A stretch of DNA of 64,000 nt. Source: a virus. Positions 52,508-63,503 of this stretch are shown here, piece by piece. The position numbers and the translations under genes are program-made. The stretch covers positions 1-64,000 of the IMG/VR virus record IMGVR_UViG_3300036770_000877; one strand, 5' to 3'. Within the stretch, counting starts at the first letter, position 1; every line of letters starts with the position of its first letter. The notes under the pieces are model-generated. The model was not told where the DNA came from and searched no databases. It saw only the letters and a program-made list of their open reading frames with translations.

Positions 52508-54351
52508 TATGCATTATTCAGGTATCTTACGATAACAATACCCGACCCTCCGTTTCCTCCAGTAGATCCAGTTGTATTTGTAAATCCTCCTCCGCCACCG
52601 CCAGTATTGGCAGCACCAGAAACTCCAGGCACTCCAGAACCATTTGATCCTGCACCACCACCGCCTTGACCTCCAGTGCTACCAGGATATGGAGATGTAT
52701 GAGCAGAACCGCCACCACCACCAGCAAACCAACCTGCAGCACCATATGTTGTACCAAAGTACGAGCTCATGTTTCTTCCTACACCACCATTACCATTTGA
52801 ACTTTGTGTTGTAGGTCCACCAGCTCCACCAGCTCCGCCTCCACCTGCTGAATAATAAGGAGGGCTTTGTGATGCACTACTTGGATCATCTCCTCCAGGA
52901 AATCCTTGACCAGGTGTATATCCACCACCTACGTAAGGACCGCTTGATGATTGAGTTCCTCCTGATCCGCTACCCCAAACATTTAGAGTTGTTGGTGGTT
53001 GCCAATCCCAACCATATGCACCTTGTCCTCCATTTGCAATAGAGACTCCAGTTATTGCTGGAGTTATGGATGTATTTTGACCATCCTTAGATGTTGATTG
53101 ATCTGAACCACCAGGTCTTGGAGTATATCCAGTGCCTCCCGCTCCTACTAAAACGCTATATGTTCCTGCTGGTGCTGTAATATTTTCGGCAAACATCAAG
53201 CCGCCAGCTCCACCGCCTGCTGCTCCACCAGCTCCGCCTCCTGCAATTAACATGTAGTCTGCTGAAACAGGTTTATTTATTTTAAGTGTTGAGGTTCCAG
53301 TTGTCGTAAAAACATGCATCTTATAGTTTCCAAAAGTTGTTATCGTTCCACCTTCCATTGCTGGACCTAAATAAAATATTCTATCTACATAGTTTCCACC
53401 AGTATCTATAGCTCTTACTGTTATTTCTGAAAATACTTCTTGAGATGGTGTTCCAGAAATAACGCCAGTTTCTTGATTTAAAGATAATCCACTAGGTAAA
53501 GTTCCATACACAATTGAATAATCAATATCTGTATTTTCAGTATCAGATGCTAATAATGTTGTAGAATAAGGAACTCCAGTAGAAATTACTGGCAGATTTG
53601 AATTTGTTTGCCATGATGGAGAAGATCCAGCAGTTATACTATTTGAAAGAATATGTAAATTAGATCCTGTAGGAGATGTTACTCCTGGATTTGTTACCTT
53701 TAAAGAATATGTTCCTGGTGCAAAGCTATCTGGTCTTACAAATGTAATTGATGTATTAGATACACGAGTAAATGATTTAGGTGTTATTTCATTATTATTT
53801 GAGTCTACTATTTTTAAATCTACGTTTAATGCAAAATTTCCACCAGTAATAGTTGCTGAATCATCTATATTTACTAAAGCTGTTGGTGTAACTGAAGATA
53901 AAAATGGTCCTGCGGTTGTTTGAGATGTAGTTGTATCTGCAGTAAATGTTGTTTTATAGCTAAATGAAAGCAGGTCTCCCTGTGACCCACCTATAACTAC
54001 TATTTTATTAAAGTTACCAGTAGCATTTAATGATGGGGACTTTGTGTATCCAACAACTGAGCCATCTCCTGAATATACATATATGTCGTAAGTAGCATCT
54101 CCAAGAGCTGAATTAATTGTGTAAGCTCCAGCAAAGTATTCTTTTGTAAATGTGGCAGTTGTAACTGACCCATTGAGAGTTACGTTAAAGTCATTTGCTC
54201 CTGTTGCTGGAAGCCATCCAGAAGATGTATAAATTTCTTGTACGCCGAGTGTACCATTATAAAATGTTTGGCCAATTGCTGGATTTGCAGGTCTATCTGA
54301 AGATGTACCAAAAGGTACCCCTCCAAGCGCAGATGTTCTAATATCGCTCAT
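52507..54351 (-). CDS. Fibre tip protein: IPT/Ig + putative Ig + polyglycine domain
   Basis: Third paralog; LPSGLSLNQETGVISGTP; DYMLIAGGGAGG...GSGIVIVRY. Confidence 0.78.
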   Translation of the reverse strand: MSDIRTSALGGVPFGTSSDRPANPAIGQTFYNGTLGVQEIYTSSGWLPATGANDFNVTLNGSVTTATFTKEYFAGAYTINSALGDATYDIYVYSGDGSVVGYTKSPSLNATGNFNKIVVIGGSQGDLLSFSYKTTFTADTTTSQTTAGPFLSSVTPTALVNIDDSATITGGNFALNVDLKIVDSNNNEITPKSFTRVSNTSITFVRPDSFAPGTYSLKVTNPGVTSPTGSNLHILSNSITAGSSPSWQTNSNLPVISTGVPYSTTLLASDTENTDIDYSIVYGTLPSGLSLNQETGVISGTPSQEVFSEITVRAIDTGGNYVDRIFYLGPAMEGGTITTFGNYKMHVFTTTGTSTLKINKPVSADYMLIAGGGAGGAAGGGAGGLMFAENITAPAGTYSVLVGAGGTGYTPRPGGSDQSTSKDGQNTSITPAITGVSIANGGQGAYGWDWQPPTTLNVWGSGSGGTQSSSGPYVGGGYTPGQGFPGGDDPSSASQSPPYYSAGGGGAGGAGGPTTQSSNGNGGVGRNMSSYFGTTYGAAGWFAGGGGGSAHTSPYPGSTGGQGGGGAGSNGSGVPGVSGAANTGGGGGGFTNTTGSTGGNGGSGIVIVRYLNNA

Positions 54352-56219
54352 TATCCAACCTTCCATCCATAGGTGCTACCAGTATAAAGTAATGTATACC
54401 AGCCACCATTATTGTCAATTATTAAATTGCCAGTCCCGCCATTTATTTTATTGCCGTTTCTAGCCACAGTTATATTATACGTTGAAGCGTTCCCAGAAGC
54501 ATCTACGATCTGAATCTCATCGTTTAGCGCAGGTGACGCAGGTAGCGTCAATGTAAGCGCAGAAGCCGATGTAACAAAATATCTCTTTTTAGCTACCAAG
54601 TTAGTGTTAGCAGATATTGATAATGGGGCTACTGAAGTATTGGCAGCAAGTAAGGCATCTGTTTCTGCCTGTGTATATGTATCTACTGCATTAAAATTAG
54701 TTACTGTAAGTACTTCAATTATATCCCCCGCCGTTGCGTCGGCAGTAAGAACAACTGTATGCTCTGTAGGTGTTGTATAGTCTGTAGTACGAATAAGCAG
54801 AATACCATTCATAAATACCTGCTCGTATCCAGGAATGAATGGAACAGTTGTAGTAAATGTATCTTGTTCTGCTACTGCTGTAAATACTTGACGACGTACT
54901 AGATTTGGATCAAATACGTCAACCTCATCATCTGAGTCAATCCATATCTGTCCTACTTCTGGAGATGTTGGAGCAGTTGTTTGATACAGGGCACCTGGTT
55001 GTGTAGATGCATCAATCTGATCAATAACGAATGCTGTTGTAGCAATTTGTGTAGTATCTGTTCCTACCGCTGCTGTCGGCGCTGTAGGTGTACCTGTAAA
55101 TGTAGGCGATGCTGATGGAGCCTTAGTTCCAAGAGCTGTTGTTACCGTGGCTGCAAATGATGCGTCATCATTAATAGCCGCTGCTAATTCATTTAAAGTA
55201 TCTAGTGTTGCAGGAGCTGCATCTACAATTGCAGCAGCCGCTGCTGAAGCAGCGTTATCTGCATAAGTCTTTGTAGCTAGGTCTGCGGTATTTGCAATAC
55301 CGTGAATATTAGTTGTGTCTGATTCATGTGATGATAAAGCAGATGCTGCAGCAGATTGTGCTGCTGCTGCTGATCCAGCGGGATCAAATAGGTTATCAAT
55401 AGTCTGATTAGTCCATAGCCCAGTAGTTGAGTTATATCTTAGTACCTGATTATTTTGCTTCCCGCTTATGTAGACATCATGAATTTCATCTAGCTCAAAC
55501 CCGTTTTGAACCTTTACAAAGATAGATCCTGTGTTTACTTGGGCTCTAGTTACAATACCTACAAATACTAAATGCTGTGGAGCATATGGCTTATTAGCCA
55601 AACCATAAATTACTGAACCTGGAGTAGATCCTAGCCATACTGGATCTCCTGGTTGAGCTGTTGAAGTATCAATGCCTTCAATAAGACCTTCGGTTACTAC
55701 CGTTCCAATTGCACCGTCTGCTACGGTATCTTCCATAATTCCAAAAGTTTTAGATGATGTTGATTCGGCAGAGTTTGAAGAAAGAACTACTCTAAGTTGA
55801 CCCGATGCTCCTACAGCCCCAGCTGCGGAAACTACCTGACCTTTATAAATAGTTGAACCAGTATTATTTACTACTTCTTGAGAAATTTTATTTGCAGTTC
55901 CACCAACACCAGTTAGTATTACTTGGTTTCCTACGTCGTCATATGTGGCGGTAAGGTTGACATGGTTTGCATGGTTAAAAAGGGCTGCCGAAGCATCCTG
56001 AGCCATTTCGTCTGTATATGTAGGAACAGTCTCTAATTGACGTACTCTATAGTCAAGGCTAGTGGTATTTGCCGAGTTGTTTATTCCAACCTTAGTCTCT
56101 AAGGCTTCAATGGCATCATTCGCATCCGCATGTTGCTGAGAGTGCGATGGAGCATCTAGTTCGTTTGTGCTGGCGGGATTTGTTAGGTTATCCAGCGAAG
56201 TCGGGAAATTGGTAGCCAT
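54351..56219 (-). CDS. Multidomain fibre shaft protein
   Basis: MATNFPTSLD, APATLDTLNELAAAI, PTFTGTPTAPTAAVGTDTTQIATTAFV, C-terminal adaptor domain. Confidence 0.75.
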   Translation of the reverse strand: MATNFPTSLDNLTNPASTNELDAPSHSQQHADANDAIEALETKVGINNSANTTSLDYRVRQLETVPTYTDEMAQDASAALFNHANHVNLTATYDDVGNQVILTGVGGTANKISQEVVNNTGSTIYKGQVVSAAGAVGASGQLRVVLSSNSAESTSSKTFGIMEDTVADGAIGTVVTEGLIEGIDTSTAQPGDPVWLGSTPGSVIYGLANKPYAPQHLVFVGIVTRAQVNTGSIFVKVQNGFELDEIHDVYISGKQNNQVLRYNSTTGLWTNQTIDNLFDPAGSAAAAQSAAASALSSHESDTTNIHGIANTADLATKTYADNAASAAAAAIVDAAPATLDTLNELAAAINDDASFAATVTTALGTKAPSASPTFTGTPTAPTAAVGTDTTQIATTAFVIDQIDASTQPGALYQTTAPTSPEVGQIWIDSDDEVDVFDPNLVRRQVFTAVAEQDTFTTTVPFIPGYEQVFMNGILLIRTTDYTTPTEHTVVLTADATAGDIIEVLTVTNFNAVDTYTQAETDALLAANTSVAPLSISANTNLVAKKRYFVTSASALTLTLPASPALNDEIQIVDASGNASTYNITVARNGNKINGGTGNLIIDNNGGWYTLLYTGSTYGWKVG

Positions 56220-56243
56220 ACCTTCCTATTATACCCCGAATAT

Positions 56244-56528
56244 CTACCAAAAGTGCTTTATGATAGCAGCTGAAGCCAAAATAGACCATCCTATATTAAA
56301 ATATATAATAGTAGGCAAAGTCTTGACTGTTGAAGTAAGTATCAAGGTCAAGCTTGATGCGAGAGCAAATATGTAAAGCCACCAAAACTGAACCCCGAAA
56401 AGAAGTCCAGGAAATATGATTGCAAGTTTTGTTGAGAATGCCCAGAACTCAATAATATTGGTTTTGTTCCAATATGACTTTTGTCCTAGTTGTTTTGTTA
56501 CTTCTACGATTTCTTTAGGCTTTATCAT
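56244..56528 (-). CDS. Small three-TM membrane protein
   Basis: Three hydrophobic segments, TLPTIIYFNIGW; ATGA overlap with upstream gene. Confidence 0.7.
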   Translation of the reverse strand: MIKPKEIVEVTKQLGQKSYWNKTNIIEFWAFSTKLAIIFPGLLFGVQFWWLYIFALASSLTLILTSTVKTLPTIIYFNIGWSILASAAIIKHFW

Positions 56529-57229
56529 TCGTAGCTTTTCTTTGCCCAAGCATTGTCTCTATACCACCCTAAAATTTTTCTTACGGACTTACTAGATGCT
56601 TTCCAACCTTCTAAAATAATATCTTTACAGTATTCTGAGATCCACTTATCTCTTTTAAATGGAATAATCTGGAAAAGAGGTGTTCCCATTTCTATGATAC
56701 CGCTAAAATCTTCTTTTAAAAATATTGAATAGTTTCCTGGAAATAAAGGATATTTATCAGTATCTATAATTGCAGACAAACCATAGAATGGTAGGTCTGG
56801 TCTATTAAATGGTTGAGTTATAAGTATGCTATATCCTGGTGGTGTTTTTATATATAACGGATGGCTTAATGTATAGTGAACATCTGAATATCCAGCCATT
56901 TTTGGCATAAATCCAGATTGGGCGCTATCTCTAACTCCAATTATGTTATCTTCTTTTTCTTTCCATCTTATATTTTGAATCCCAGTATTTTCATCTTTTA
57001 TCACATAAAGATCTGCCCATAGCTCAAAAATATATCCAGAAATCATAGCGTCCGTAAATGGCATACAAACTTTAAAAGTTTTTTTAGCATTTAGCAAATT
57101 TTCGTCTGGCGTCCCCATGAATCTAGGAGTTTTTTTAAACCACTCTGGAAGATAAGACTTTGCTGGCTTTGGAAAAGATATATCCCAAAGCCTGTCTGAT
57201 AGAGCAAACTTTATTGTTTTATTTTTCAT
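56525..57229 (-). CDS. DUF6065-like / dUTPase-fold-like protein
   Basis: KPAKSYLPEWFK, TFKVCMPFTDAM..GY, KTPPGYSILITQPFNR, IIDTD, GTPLFQIIPFKR; family recognised by eye. Confidence 0.55.
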   Translation of the reverse strand: MKNKTIKFALSDRLWDISFPKPAKSYLPEWFKKTPRFMGTPDENLLNAKKTFKVCMPFTDAMISGYIFELWADLYVIKDENTGIQNIRWKEKEDNIIGVRDSAQSGFMPKMAGYSDVHYTLSHPLYIKTPPGYSILITQPFNRPDLPFYGLSAIIDTDKYPLFPGNYSIFLKEDFSGIIEMGTPLFQIIPFKRDKWISEYCKDIILEGWKASSKSVRKILGWYRDNAWAKKSYE

Positions 57230-58808
57230 TATGGATATTTTCCTTTAGCCATTGATACATAGTTGGTGAAGCATCTGCTTCTTCCTGCCAAAGTTTACGG
57301 AATAGATCCCATGTCTTCCACGTATCTTTGCAGTATTCATAATAATCGATACCGTCATAGTGATGCCATCTTTCTACTGTATCTTTAGTAACAGGGAAAT
57401 AATTAAGTCCTGTAGCAATACAGTGGATTCCACCAACCCCGTCATATCTTTGACGATTAATGTGAATATCACCCATATCTTGGAATCCAATAACCATAGA
57501 TGGATTTAATTCTTGAAGATCTGGCTGGAATGTCTTATCTGTAATATCCTGCCAATATTTTGTATCTTGTCTATTTGAAAGAGCATAATGTTGAGCAACA
57601 AACTCCTTAAATCCAAGATACTGTCTACGTGTTGTCATATTATAAACATCACGATCTGTTTGTGTTACCGTTCCACGGCTTAATGTCTTTACTAGCTTAT
57701 CTAGAAACTCATGGACTGTAAATAGACCATTAGATTCTAGCGGCTCAATAAATCCAGCAGCAAATCCAATAGCAACAACATTCTTTACAAATGTGCGCTT
57801 ATGAATTCCCACCTTAAACTTAATATACCTGTATTCAAAATTATCTACATCACGATTTGGATCATGTATAGTCATCTTATCTGATCTTAAGTGATCCTTA
57901 AATTCCTGCAGAGCATCTTCCTTTGAGATGTACTTATCGCTAAATACATATCCTGTTCCGATACGTTCCCATGAAGGAATATTCCATACCCAGCCATTTT
58001 CAATGGCAATACAGTTAGTGTATGGCTCCATCTCTTTTTCCTTATCCGTATAAGGAATACGAGTAGCCCATGCGCTGTTATTTGGAAGCATATGCTCAAA
58101 ATCATCCCATGGCTCGTTCAATGCACCTTCGAGCAACATTGATTTAAATCCAGTACAGTCAATAAATAGATCTGCAGTTATCTTTTCTCCAGTAGTTAGA
58201 GTTACTGATTCAATTCCCGCATCATTTGTAGAAACCTCAGTTACTGTATCTGCTACTACTATAACTCCACGAGGAATACAGTAGTTATTCTTTAGCCACT
58301 GACCAAACTTAGTAGCGTCAAAGTGGTATGCGACATCTTGCTTAAAGTTAAAGTTACCCAACTTGCCCGATTCATTCCATGACAGCTTATTCTGTTCTGC
58401 CAAAGTAAGGGCGGGGAAGAAAGTGCGAGCATAATCTGCTACATCTAGATCTGGAAACTTAGCCTTCTTAACATACCAGTCATTAAGACCATTAACTGTT
58501 CCATCTAGGAATACCTTACCAAATGGGTAGTGGAATCCACCAGCATCCTTATTATAAAAATCTGTAAACTTAATAGACATCTTATATACAGCATCTGTTG
58601 CTGGCATAAAGTCTTTTTCATCAATACCAATCCAATTAGCCCATCCAGTAATCCCGCCTAATGTAGATTCTCCCACACCAATAATCGGATAATCTGGGGA
58701 TTCTATTACAACAATTTCCTTATCTGGAAATGCTCTAATCATGGAAGCGGCTGACATCCAGCCAGCTGACCCTCCACCAACAATAACAATCTTATTTAAA
58801 TTAATCAA
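57219..58808 (-). CDS. Flavin-dependent halogenase (tryptophan halogenase family, PrnA/RebH-like)
   Basis: GGGSAG, IGVGEST, catalytic Lys (AVYK76MSIKF), AYHFDA, DLFIDCTGF, GWVWNIP (WxWxIP), FIEPLESNG (Fx.Px.Sx.G). Confidence 0.93.
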   Translation of the reverse strand: MINLNKIVIVGGGSAGWMSAASMIRAFPDKEIVVIESPDYPIIGVGESTLGGITGWANWIGIDEKDFMPATDAVYKMSIKFTDFYNKDAGGFHYPFGKVFLDGTVNGLNDWYVKKAKFPDLDVADYARTFFPALTLAEQNKLSWNESGKLGNFNFKQDVAYHFDATKFGQWLKNNYCIPRGVIVVADTVTEVSTNDAGIESVTLTTGEKITADLFIDCTGFKSMLLEGALNEPWDDFEHMLPNNSAWATRIPYTDKEKEMEPYTNCIAIENGWVWNIPSWERIGTGYVFSDKYISKEDALQEFKDHLRSDKMTIHDPNRDVDNFEYRYIKFKVGIHKRTFVKNVVAIGFAAGFIEPLESNGLFTVHEFLDKLVKTLSRGTVTQTDRDVYNMTTRRQYLGFKEFVAQHYALSNRQDTKYWQDITDKTFQPDLQELNPSMVIGFQDMGDIHINRQRYDGVGGIHCIATGLNYFPVTKDTVERWHHYDGIDYYEYCKDTWKTWDLFRKLWQEEADASPTMYQWLKENIHNEK

Positions 58809-58824
58809 TGATATACCTATCTCT

Positions 58825-58877
58825 AAAAAGACTAATGCCTCTACTTATAGGTTACTATAATAGAGGCATTTTGTCAA
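58825..58877 (-). promoter_or_regulatory. Overlapping terminator hairpin and TTGACA-N17-TAACCT promoter upstream of the halogenase
   Basis: Inverted repeat AATGCCTCTATTATAG-TAAC-CTATAAGTAGAGGCATT then AGTCTTTTT; -35 at 58877-58872, -10 at 58854-58849. Confidence 0.65.
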
Positions 58878-58884
58878 TGCTTTT

Positions 58885-59169
58885 TTATGAAAGCTTTATC
58901 CAAGCTGTGGTTTCTTCGTCCCAGCGATAAACTCCATCTTGAGGGGCTAATCCTGCTGGAGATTCCCACTCATAAGTTTCTTCATTAAATATCCAGGAAT
59001 TCCATGGTTTAATATCTATAAATTTATTGGACTCAAAATCATATGTTGATCCAATATGAGCATCTCTTGTTGACTCTGTTACTCTTACGTATCCAGCAGA
59101 GTTAAAAGATTCATCTCCAACAATTATATTAACTACTGTATTATTTATTACTTGTGCAAACTTAATCAT
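58885..59169 (-). CDS. Small Trp-rich protein (putative fibre assembly/partner protein)
   Basis: FAQV.NNTVVNIIV...KFIDIKPWNSWIFNEETYEWESP...YRWDEETTAW; paralog of 63210-63503. Confidence 0.7.
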   Translation of the reverse strand: MIKFAQVINNTVVNIIVGDESFNSAGYVRVTESTRDAHIGSTYDFESNKFIDIKPWNSWIFNEETYEWESPAGLAPQDGVYRWDEETTAWIKLS

Positions 59170-63209: not shown

Positions 63210-63503
63210 TTAAGAAACTTCAAGCCAATCTTGTTCTTGTTCGCTCCAGGCCCATTTTCCACTAGCAGGCTTTTCTTTTGGTGGAGTCCATTCAAAAGAT
63301 TCTTCATCTAGAGTCCACGAATCAAATGGCCTGGATATAATAAACTTATTTTTTTCTTTAGAATAAAGTGATCCTGGTCCAGCCCATCCAGTTTCTTCTG
63401 TAACTTCAACATAGATTCCTTCTATCTCATCGATAAGAGATGGAACTGCTACTATTACTGATTCAACAATATTTTCTGAATTAATTTTTGCAAAGTTTTT
63501 CAT
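63210..63503 (-). CDS. Small Trp-rich protein (paralog of 58885-59169)
   Basis: FAKINSENIVESVIV...KFIISRPFDSWTLDEESFEWTPP...KWAWSEQEQDW. Confidence 0.7.
   Translation of the reverse strand: MKNFAKINSENIVESVIVAVPSLIDEIEGIYVEVTEETGWAGPGSLYSKEKNKFIISRPFDSWTLDEESFEWTPPKEKPASGKWAWSEQEQDWLEVS

Follow-up and report, generated by a model that had tools for sequence, protein, structure and literature searches.

Flavin-dependent halogenases are widespread in the phages of aquatic environments, and VirX1, one such enzyme, is prized in biocatalysis. To our knowledge, the role during infection is not known for any viral enzyme of this kind. Here we analyse a halogenase locus in a 64,000-nucleotide (nt) stretch of viral DNA, hereafter the window, which comprises positions 1 to 64,000 of the IMG/VR record IMGVR_UViG_3300036770_000877 (104.5 kb, estimated to be 85% complete). 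Three overlapping genes encode a halogenase, a 234-amino acid (aa) protein of the DUF6065 type and a 94-aa three-helix membrane protein that we call tm94. We consider it somewhat better than an even bet that the locus as a whole is best explained as a pared-down form, in a WhiB-encoding phage, of the halogenase 'tailoring' cassette that aquatic tailed phages carry. Both partner families recur beside halogenases in unrelated genomic contexts, and the analysis supports the view that the three genes form a functional module.

The pairing of the first two genes is already described. Iyer, Abhiman, de Souza and Aravind (2010; PMC2938197) noted a 'dUTPase-fold protein with a conserved cysteine' beside cyanophage halogenases, and predicted secondary-metabolite synthesis for clusters of the Syn9 type. 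In Syn9 the gp43 gene overlaps the stop codon of the halogenase gene gp42, and in Syn10 the 531-aa gene corresponding to VirX1 is likewise followed by a gene annotated as "similar to gp43". VirX1 itself (PDB 6QGM) is described in PMC8407142 as a trimer with a large, open and accessible pocket and a halide preference of I > Br > Cl. The same source gives its natural substrate as not known and has it accepting many small aromatic compounds.

The window cassette has the essential arrangement of these systems, with a phage halogenase gene followed by an overlapping gene for a dUTPase-fold protein, and like the Syn9 and Syn10 clusters it adjoins tail-fibre genes. Yet it is much smaller. The Syn9 cluster contains two halogenases and ten dioxygenases, whereas the window cassette has a single halogenase, no oxygenase array and an additional membrane partner. 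The small gene that comes after gp43 in Syn9, gp44, encodes a charged soluble protein, in contrast to tm94. The carriers differ too, that of VirX1 being a marine T4-like cyanophage and that of the window cassette a WhiB-encoding, probably actinobacterial, phage. We have not found tm94 described before; it is the new element relative to the known pairing.

Every gene around the cassette lies on the minus strand. The halogenase gene (57219..58808) encodes 529 aa from a TTG start codon, and in relatives the corresponding codon is ATG or TTG. The ATG of the 234-aa protein gene (56525..57229) is placed 11 nt ahead of the halogenase stop, generating an 11-nt overlap (ATGAAAAATAA), and the tm94 gene (56244..56528) overlaps the 234-aa gene by ATGA. 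The earlier note on this DNA had read the trio as three overlapping genes within a fibre array, and the open reading frame coordinates agree. The mutual overlaps suggest that translation of the three genes is coupled.

In alignment, the predicted halogenase carries every catalytic hallmark of the VirX1-type flavin-dependent enzymes, just as the motifs had been read previously. It matches Pfam Trp_halogenase (PF04820) with 347.3 bits (E = 1.8e-103; cut-off 21) and phrog_2928 with 502 bits. The FAD-binding GxGxxG motif is GGGSAG at residues 11–16, aligned to both VirX1 and Th-Hal, K76 (AVYKMSIKF) aligns with VirX1 K79 (ATYKNSIRF), and the WxWxIP motif is GWVWNIP in both proteins. FIEPLES aligns with FIEPLES of VirX1, with its glutamate at the position of PrnA E346; the loop that follows the motif reads ESTG in VirX1 and ESNG in the window halogenase. 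VirX1 is also the best solved structure, aligned over residues 1–527 (E = 1.6e-104) at ~38% identity. The tryptophan halogenases of the PrnA, RebH, PyrH and Thal type align only to about residue 420–433 of 529, so that the likeness to VirX1 alone includes the C-terminal part. Overall identity is 51% to the halogenase of Synechococcus phage Sf-CH11 and 38% to those of Syn9 and Syn10. The apparent lack of a flavin reductase, remarked upon earlier for the locus, extends to the whole 104.5-kb record, where a Flavin_Reduct search found no gene. Reduced flavin must therefore come from the host, as assumed for VirX1.

The 234-aa protein was modelled with AlphaFold from 39 sequences, with a predicted local distance difference test score (pLDDT) of 92 and a predicted template modelling score of 0.87. 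Among the top 50 Foldseek rows for this model there are only dUTPases and dCTP deaminases (best E = 3e-4). In an all-against-all comparison with VIA-align the first 22 rows all belong to the dUTPase/dCTP-deaminase superfamily, with Z from 8.5 to 4.9 and the next at 3.8. Because both methods rank members of the superfamily first, the trimeric dUTPase/dCTP-deaminase fold that had been guessed for this protein was a sound prediction. The beta-barrel is common to the predicted structure and the trimeric enzymes, and the 234-aa protein adds ~100 residues, an invariant Cys55 and a helical C-terminus. At the level of sequence the resemblance is slight. Comparison of the family with 14 bacterial dUTPases by hhalign gave probabilities of just 1.4–3.1%, and no match to Pfam dUTPase or DCD was found among the 39 homologues. 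The sole hhalign alignment places G-I-V-D-T-D, an (I/V)-D-T-D element, at motif III and G-T-P-x-x-Q at motif IV, with Asp158 and Gln187 lying there. Neither the Arg-Ser of motif II nor motif V, a C-terminal element resembling a P-loop, can be recognised on reading the sequence; these are the parts that hold the phosphates. Lacking these motifs and any significant sequence or profile similarity, the 234-aa protein is judged not to be a canonical dUTPase (dUTP pyrophosphatase).

Its kinship with the cyanophage partner is clearer. Syn9 gp43 aligns with the 234-aa family over 182 columns (hhalign probability 97.2%, E = 3e-11), and the Cys-x-Pro, G-Y and GTP-x-x-Q-x-IP motifs are common to both, identifying the predicted protein as a homologue of the gp43 type. 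It matches phrog_7084 at 1.3e-34. The DUF6065 label used in the earlier note holds in part: there is a match to PF19541, and 36 of the 39 homologues match DUF6065 weakly as well, but the score of 18.8 bits is under the curated cut-off of 26.6. A DUF6065-family protein from a related phage (L040) scores 130 bits (1e-37) and aligns with the 234-aa protein, with motifs in common. We therefore treat the latter as a divergent relative rather than a curated member. The invariant residues of the family include K53, C55, P57, D60, G65, Y66, S134, D158, Q187 and R193; Cys55 is unchanged in 39 sequences, and Cys55-x-Pro57 is invariant as a unit. This pattern looks like that of an enzyme. No sequence-level link from DUF6065-type proteins to solved structures was found, and a literature search for DUF6065, DUF6552 or CBU_0592 returned no paper.

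Relatives of the 234-aa protein are found in other settings too. In Halorubrum phage HF2 the homologue (L002, 47866–49003) is divergent from a ribonucleotide reductase gene and adjoins tail and baseplate genes. A homologue is present in 49 haloarchaeal virus records, and in none of them was a halogenase match found. At four bacterial DUF6065 loci there is no halogenase within 8 kb, and three of the four genomes encode between 1 and 11 halogenases elsewhere. Two Citromicrobium metagenome-assembled genomes (G008 and G009, loci L199 and L200) have 10–11 paralogous tryptophan halogenases, grouped in tandem, besides a single SapC gene and a single gene of the DUF6065 type, from which all of those halogenases are more than 8 kb away. 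SapC was considered as a bacterial counterpart of DUF6065, and gave an hhalign probability of ~0.1% with a two-sequence SapC alignment.

The third protein, tm94, has helices at residues 4–13, 22–44, 49–65 and 72–93 in a model with pLDDT 70, an amphipathic N-terminal helix being followed by three long hydrophobic transmembrane helices. There are four lysines in the N-terminus and none in the first loop, placing the N-terminus in the cytoplasm by the positive-inside rule; the conserved face predicted to look towards the cytoplasm comprises Y19, W20, N24, E27, K34 and S66–T73. The chain stops four residues past the third helix, and reading of its sequence reveals none of the charged C-terminal tail that is typical of holins. 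Its relatives fall into 1988 clusters, of which the best 120 are 78–97% identical to it, and 31 columns are invariant among 22 diverse sequences. A profile search of 1.84 billion representatives found 53 proteins of 36–153 aa, none of them a fusion to a halogenase or other domain. No relatives were found in Pfam, PHROG, NCBIfam or the PDB.

A SemiSWEET/PnuC-like transporter had been suggested for tm94, and this lacks any sequence, profile or fold support. The likeness comes down to size and three transmembrane helices, and tm94 differs in having no PQ motif. None of 22 tm94 members has a match in Pfam, PF03083 and PF04973 included, and hhalign against six bacterial PnuC proteins gave a probability of 0.3%, for an alignment shallow enough (effective sequence number 1.9) that a distant relationship could have escaped it. 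On the pLDDT 70 model Foldseek places SemiSWEET no higher than rank 50 (E = 5.4), and no match falls below E = 1. Leads from a language model fared no better. Viral 'PnuC' clusters of 82–90 aa scored 0.83, within the range reached by shuffled sequences, and of the further leads DUF6552 and CBU_0592, the first (PF20189) gave no match in the record.

How general is the association of the three genes? We seeded IMG/VR loci with each of them, then called and clustered the open reading frames, giving 193 loci in 92 groups after a crude dereplication. Seeding with tm94 (6-kb flanks) yielded 38 groups, with a halogenase in 34, a DUF6065-type gene in 26, tm94 in 35 and a 2-oxoglutarate (2OG) oxygenase in 13. 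The halogenase (4-kb flanks) gave 48 groups, with a halogenase in all 48, a DUF6065-type gene in 21, tm94 in 14 and a 2OG oxygenase in 31. The 20 groups seeded with DUF6065 (5-kb flanks) contain a DUF6065-type gene in every case, a halogenase in five, tm94 in two and a 2OG oxygenase in 13. tm94 depends on halogenases, whereas halogenases do not depend on tm94, and the linkage of the DUF6065 partner is looser than that of tm94. Even the apparent exceptions largely conform. tm94 occurs without a halogenase within 6 kb in five records, four of which encode a halogenase elsewhere while the fifth is a 51%-complete fragment; two of the four are complete genomes with terminal repeats, where the halogenase lies tens of kb from tm94. 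A linked module rather than a lone auxiliary gene had been proposed. The trio does recur in many uncultured phages, in varied orders and contexts, but it is not obligatory.

The order of genes around tm94 is variable, with H-T, H-D-T, H-T-D, H-T-D-D, H-D-x-x-T, H-O-O-O-T, Cb-D-D-T and D-H-D-H-T all represented (H, halogenase; D, DUF6065 type; T, tm94; Cb, carbamoyltransferase). The H-D-T order of the window is also found in L047, L050 and L052. Close relatives keep the halogenase and tm94, and have the DUF6065 gene after tm94, 10–16 kb away, or not found in a fragment; there are 0 to 3 DUF6065-type copies per locus. Over 35 groups, pairs of tm94 sequences are on average 72% identical, compared with 41% among the halogenases and 32% among the DUF6065-type proteins. 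In 30 pairs tm94 is at least 85% identical while the halogenases are no more than 55% identical, and thus the pairing of tm94 with a halogenase survives replacement of the latter. Each of the ten tm94 carriers with a completeness of 50% or more encodes WhiB, and so does the present genome; WhiB is absent from both of the halogenase-only records tested. tm94 appears to be confined to actinophage-like viruses.

The genes that recur nearby encode 2OG-Fe(II) oxygenases, certain of them prolyl-hydroxylase-like, along with fibre proteins, proteins with collagen repeats, a glycosyltransferase and a carbamoyltransferase. Several loci have distinctive arrangements. A four-gene run in L166, L184, L185 and L187 comprises a halogenase (50% identity), a DUF6065-type gene (40%), a very different halogenase (27%) and tm94 (65%), so that one membrane partner is common to two halogenase types. 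In L061, L063 and L069 (e.g. L069:3133–4575) a NodU/CmcH-type carbamoyltransferase gene is followed by two DUF6065-type genes and tm94, with a halogenase and a DUF6065-type gene ~4 kb upstream of this run. In the WhiB-encoding L096 (L096:5962–9704; 156-kb record) and L097 (145-kb record), tm94 adjoins thyX and a dTDP-sugar set of RmlA-like nucleotidyltransferase, RmlC-like epimerase and RmlB-like dehydratase genes, and the halogenase is elsewhere in the genome.

A number of observations weigh against the reading of the cassette as a dedicated tailoring module. Most halogenase loci have no tm94, including all 65 of the halogenase-carrying records among cultured phages, and tm94 is missing from the cultured phage records altogether. 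The divergence of tm94 and that of the halogenase are correlated (Spearman 0.59), so that co-occurrence reflects in part shared ancestry, and the dereplication was crude. Members of the DUF6065 family are also present in haloarchaeal myoviruses and cyanophage S-RIM4, with no halogenase, and there they adjoin ribonucleotide reductase genes. No similarity of tm94 to transporters or channels was detected with Pfam, Foldseek or hhalign against PnuC. There is no 2OG oxygenase of the PF13640 type in the record, and no obviously odd fibre protein in the window that would mark a protein substrate.

The tailoring cassette may nevertheless be given a plausible mechanism. FADH2 from a host flavin reductase would supply the halogenase, which with O2 and halide would make hypohalous acid, held at Lys76. 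The enzyme would then halogenate an electron-rich aromatic group, in a pocket that, like the one in VirX1, is large and open. The DUF6065 protein, a dUTPase-like barrel with Cys-x-Pro, Asp158 and Gln187 and devoid of the phosphate-binding motifs, would act on or present the same substrate; a role as the partner that determines specificity fits with its rapid divergence and variable copy number. Predicted to lie in the cytoplasmic membrane with its N-terminus inside, tm94 would serve the halogenase, our preferred role for it being a conduit for halide, or for substrate or product, and the alternative a membrane anchor for the enzyme. In its full form, with tm94 as a new miniature conduit of three helices, presumably oligomeric, that feeds the halogenase with halide or substrate in phages of freshwater actinobacteria, we regard this idea as unlikely. 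It would, though, explain why tm94 is found almost exclusively in genomes that encode a halogenase, and why it is so much more constrained than the enzyme. It would also account for the absence of tm94 from the cultured phages with a halogenase, for the most part marine cyanophages and pelagiphages whose surrounding water is rich in halide, and for the presence of WhiB in every sufficiently complete tm94 carrier tested. As for the substrate, we lean tentatively to a protein or peptide that is produced together with the fibre genes; a small metabolite is a possibility we hold with more doubt, a nucleotide or DNA is improbable, and the rest of our expectation falls to something else.

After the upstream 94-aa gene there is an intergenic hairpin followed by a U-tract (58825..58877, minus strand), with TTGACA (58877–58872) at its 5′ edge. 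The RNA folds with ΔG = −20.9 kcal/mol (z = −4.8), and none of 200 shuffled sequences was as good. The same order of elements, a TTGACA hexamer, then a hairpin, then a T-run, is also found upstream of the halogenase in L039, L053 and L064. The stem sequences differ between these loci, and the recurrence of the layout with different stems thus supports a terminator plus promoter. We conclude that 58825–58877 is probably the terminator of the upstream fibre unit together with the promoter region of the cassette. The −10 of the candidate promoter (TAACCT) is weak and was not listed by a consensus promoter scan, and promoter-like sites in the region do not exceed the expectation from shuffling (9 found, 12.9 expected). 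On the other side, the 24-nt gap between tm94 and the next fibre gene (56220..56243, minus strand) contains TATAAT (56233–56228) and an AGGAAGG ribosome-binding site. The cassette had been called self-contained, and the significant upstream hairpin bears this out for one end, but downstream there is just the TATAAT hexamer. A terminator scan found none between tm94 and the following fibre gene, so the cassette is not fully self-contained and read-through into the fibre genes is possible.

Such read-through is in keeping with the rival that survives best, which we hold to be a tentative but serious contender. This proposes that Trp, Tyr or His of a nearby fibre or virion protein is halogenated, the DUF6065 protein being an adaptor that selects the fibre and tm94 being peripheral, in halide supply for example. 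The cassette is indeed located within a fibre-gene array, its neighbours matching tail-fibre PHROGs and Gly_rich_2, but recognisable fibre genes occur in only 15 of the 38 tm94-seeded groups (6 kb) and 15 of the 48 halogenase-seeded groups (4 kb), and the cassette has a consensus −35 box of its own, unlike its neighbours. In Syn9 the halogenases come after tail-fibre and fibre-assembly genes, and prolyl 4-hydroxylase-type oxygenases and collagen-repeat proteins are frequent in related loci; against this, the window contains no His-, Trp- or Tyr-rich fibre candidate, and we know of no report of a halogenated phage virion protein. The large accessible pocket of VirX1 (PMC8407142) could admit such a substrate. 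The membrane partner is left unexplained.

tm94 finds a natural place if the product is a small molecule, where a host metabolite or amino-acid-derived compound would be halogenated or otherwise modified, and tm94 would import the precursor or export the product. We are rather doubtful of this explanation. It accords with the secondary-metabolite synthesis predicted for Syn9-type clusters by Iyer et al. (2010; PMC2938197), and with the many small aromatics accepted by VirX1 (PMC8407142), yet no scaffold enzyme (nonribosomal peptide synthetase, polyketide synthase or precursor of a ribosomally synthesized and post-translationally modified peptide) is seen at this locus or the related ones. The last, 3′-most gene in runs that encode soluble tailoring enzymes (halogenase, DUF6065, oxygenases, carbamoyltransferase and glycosyltransferase) is tm94. 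That position would suit a transporter, but tm94 has no detectable kinship with any, and the cassette consists of just three genes.

A further alternative, which we find improbable, is that the association is one of synteny only. tm94 would be a core membrane gene of a single actinophage lineage, holin-like or concerned with exclusion, that happens to border a hypervariable island of swapped halogenases and DUF6065 genes. Its restriction to WhiB-encoding phages, its conservation far above that of its neighbours and the exchange of halogenase alleles beside it would all be expected on this basis. However, the carriers of tm94 span at least two genome-size classes (about 100–108 kb and 137–158 kb) with different flanking genes. 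The five loci with no halogenase within 6 kb, which might have favoured synteny, argue the other way in four cases by encoding one at a distance, the fifth record being just 51% complete, and halogenases are otherwise rare, with 65 in 50,697 cultured phage records. Nor does tm94 have the C-terminal tail of a holin. No lysis-gene family was recognised among the ~20 annotated recurrent neighbour families, this genome's own lysin genes not having been searched for. The three-helix protein tracks halogenases, with no link to lysis genes found in those families.

Least probable of all is that the dUTPase-fold protein binds a pyrimidine nucleotide, with its Cys possibly activating C5, and that a 5-halopyrimidine enters the phage DNA: the fold, the motif III- and IV-like elements of that sole hhalign alignment, the ribonucleotide reductase genes beside DUF6065 genes in halovirus HF2 and S-RIM4 and the thyX gene beside tm94 in L096-type genomes point in this direction, but the hhalign probabilities are minimal, motifs II and V and any Pfam dUTPase/DCD match are absent, DUF6065-family neighbours are usually 2OG-Fe(II) oxygenases and not DNA-modification genes, the fold is also found in non-enzymatic viral proteins (herpesvirus pp71 and ORF10), and we know of no flavin halogenase that acts on pyrimidines.

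The setting of the cassette can be defined further. Downstream the next fibre gene (54351–56219, minus strand) encodes 622 aa and matches many tail-fibre PHROGs, while upstream the neighbours are the 94-aa gene (phrog_7759) and a glycine-rich fibre-type gene (Gly_rich_2). There are two phrog_7759-type paralogues, at 58885–59169 and 63210–63503 (minus strand), with 5–6% Trp and the N-termini MIKFAQVINNTVVNIIV and MKNFAKINSENIVESVIV. Each directly follows a glycine-rich gene of the fibre type, which makes a helper role in fibre assembly probable, and the family is present in 37 related loci. Two WhiB-family genes are found in the record outside the window, at 84721–84906 (plus strand) and 96757–96930 (minus strand), and these support an actinobacterial host. 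A close relative (G075) has 104,393 bp with direct terminal repeats. The carrier is thus a WhiB-encoding phage of ~104 kb that probably infects actinobacteria, and the host group of this uncultured phage is probably the freshwater actinobacteria.

Our analysis reduces the question of what viral halogenases do to three genes, providing a small, defined system in which substrate, halide supply and complexes can be addressed. The dUTPase-fold partner noted in 2010 extends from the marine cyanophages to actinophage-like viruses, probably of fresh water. To this is added an uncharacterised membrane protein that is almost never seen without a halogenase, and which gives a concrete handle on the natural role of the viral enzymes. 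If tm94 is a conduit for halide or substrate, it would represent a new minimal transporter family, and a useful addition to halogenase biocatalysis.

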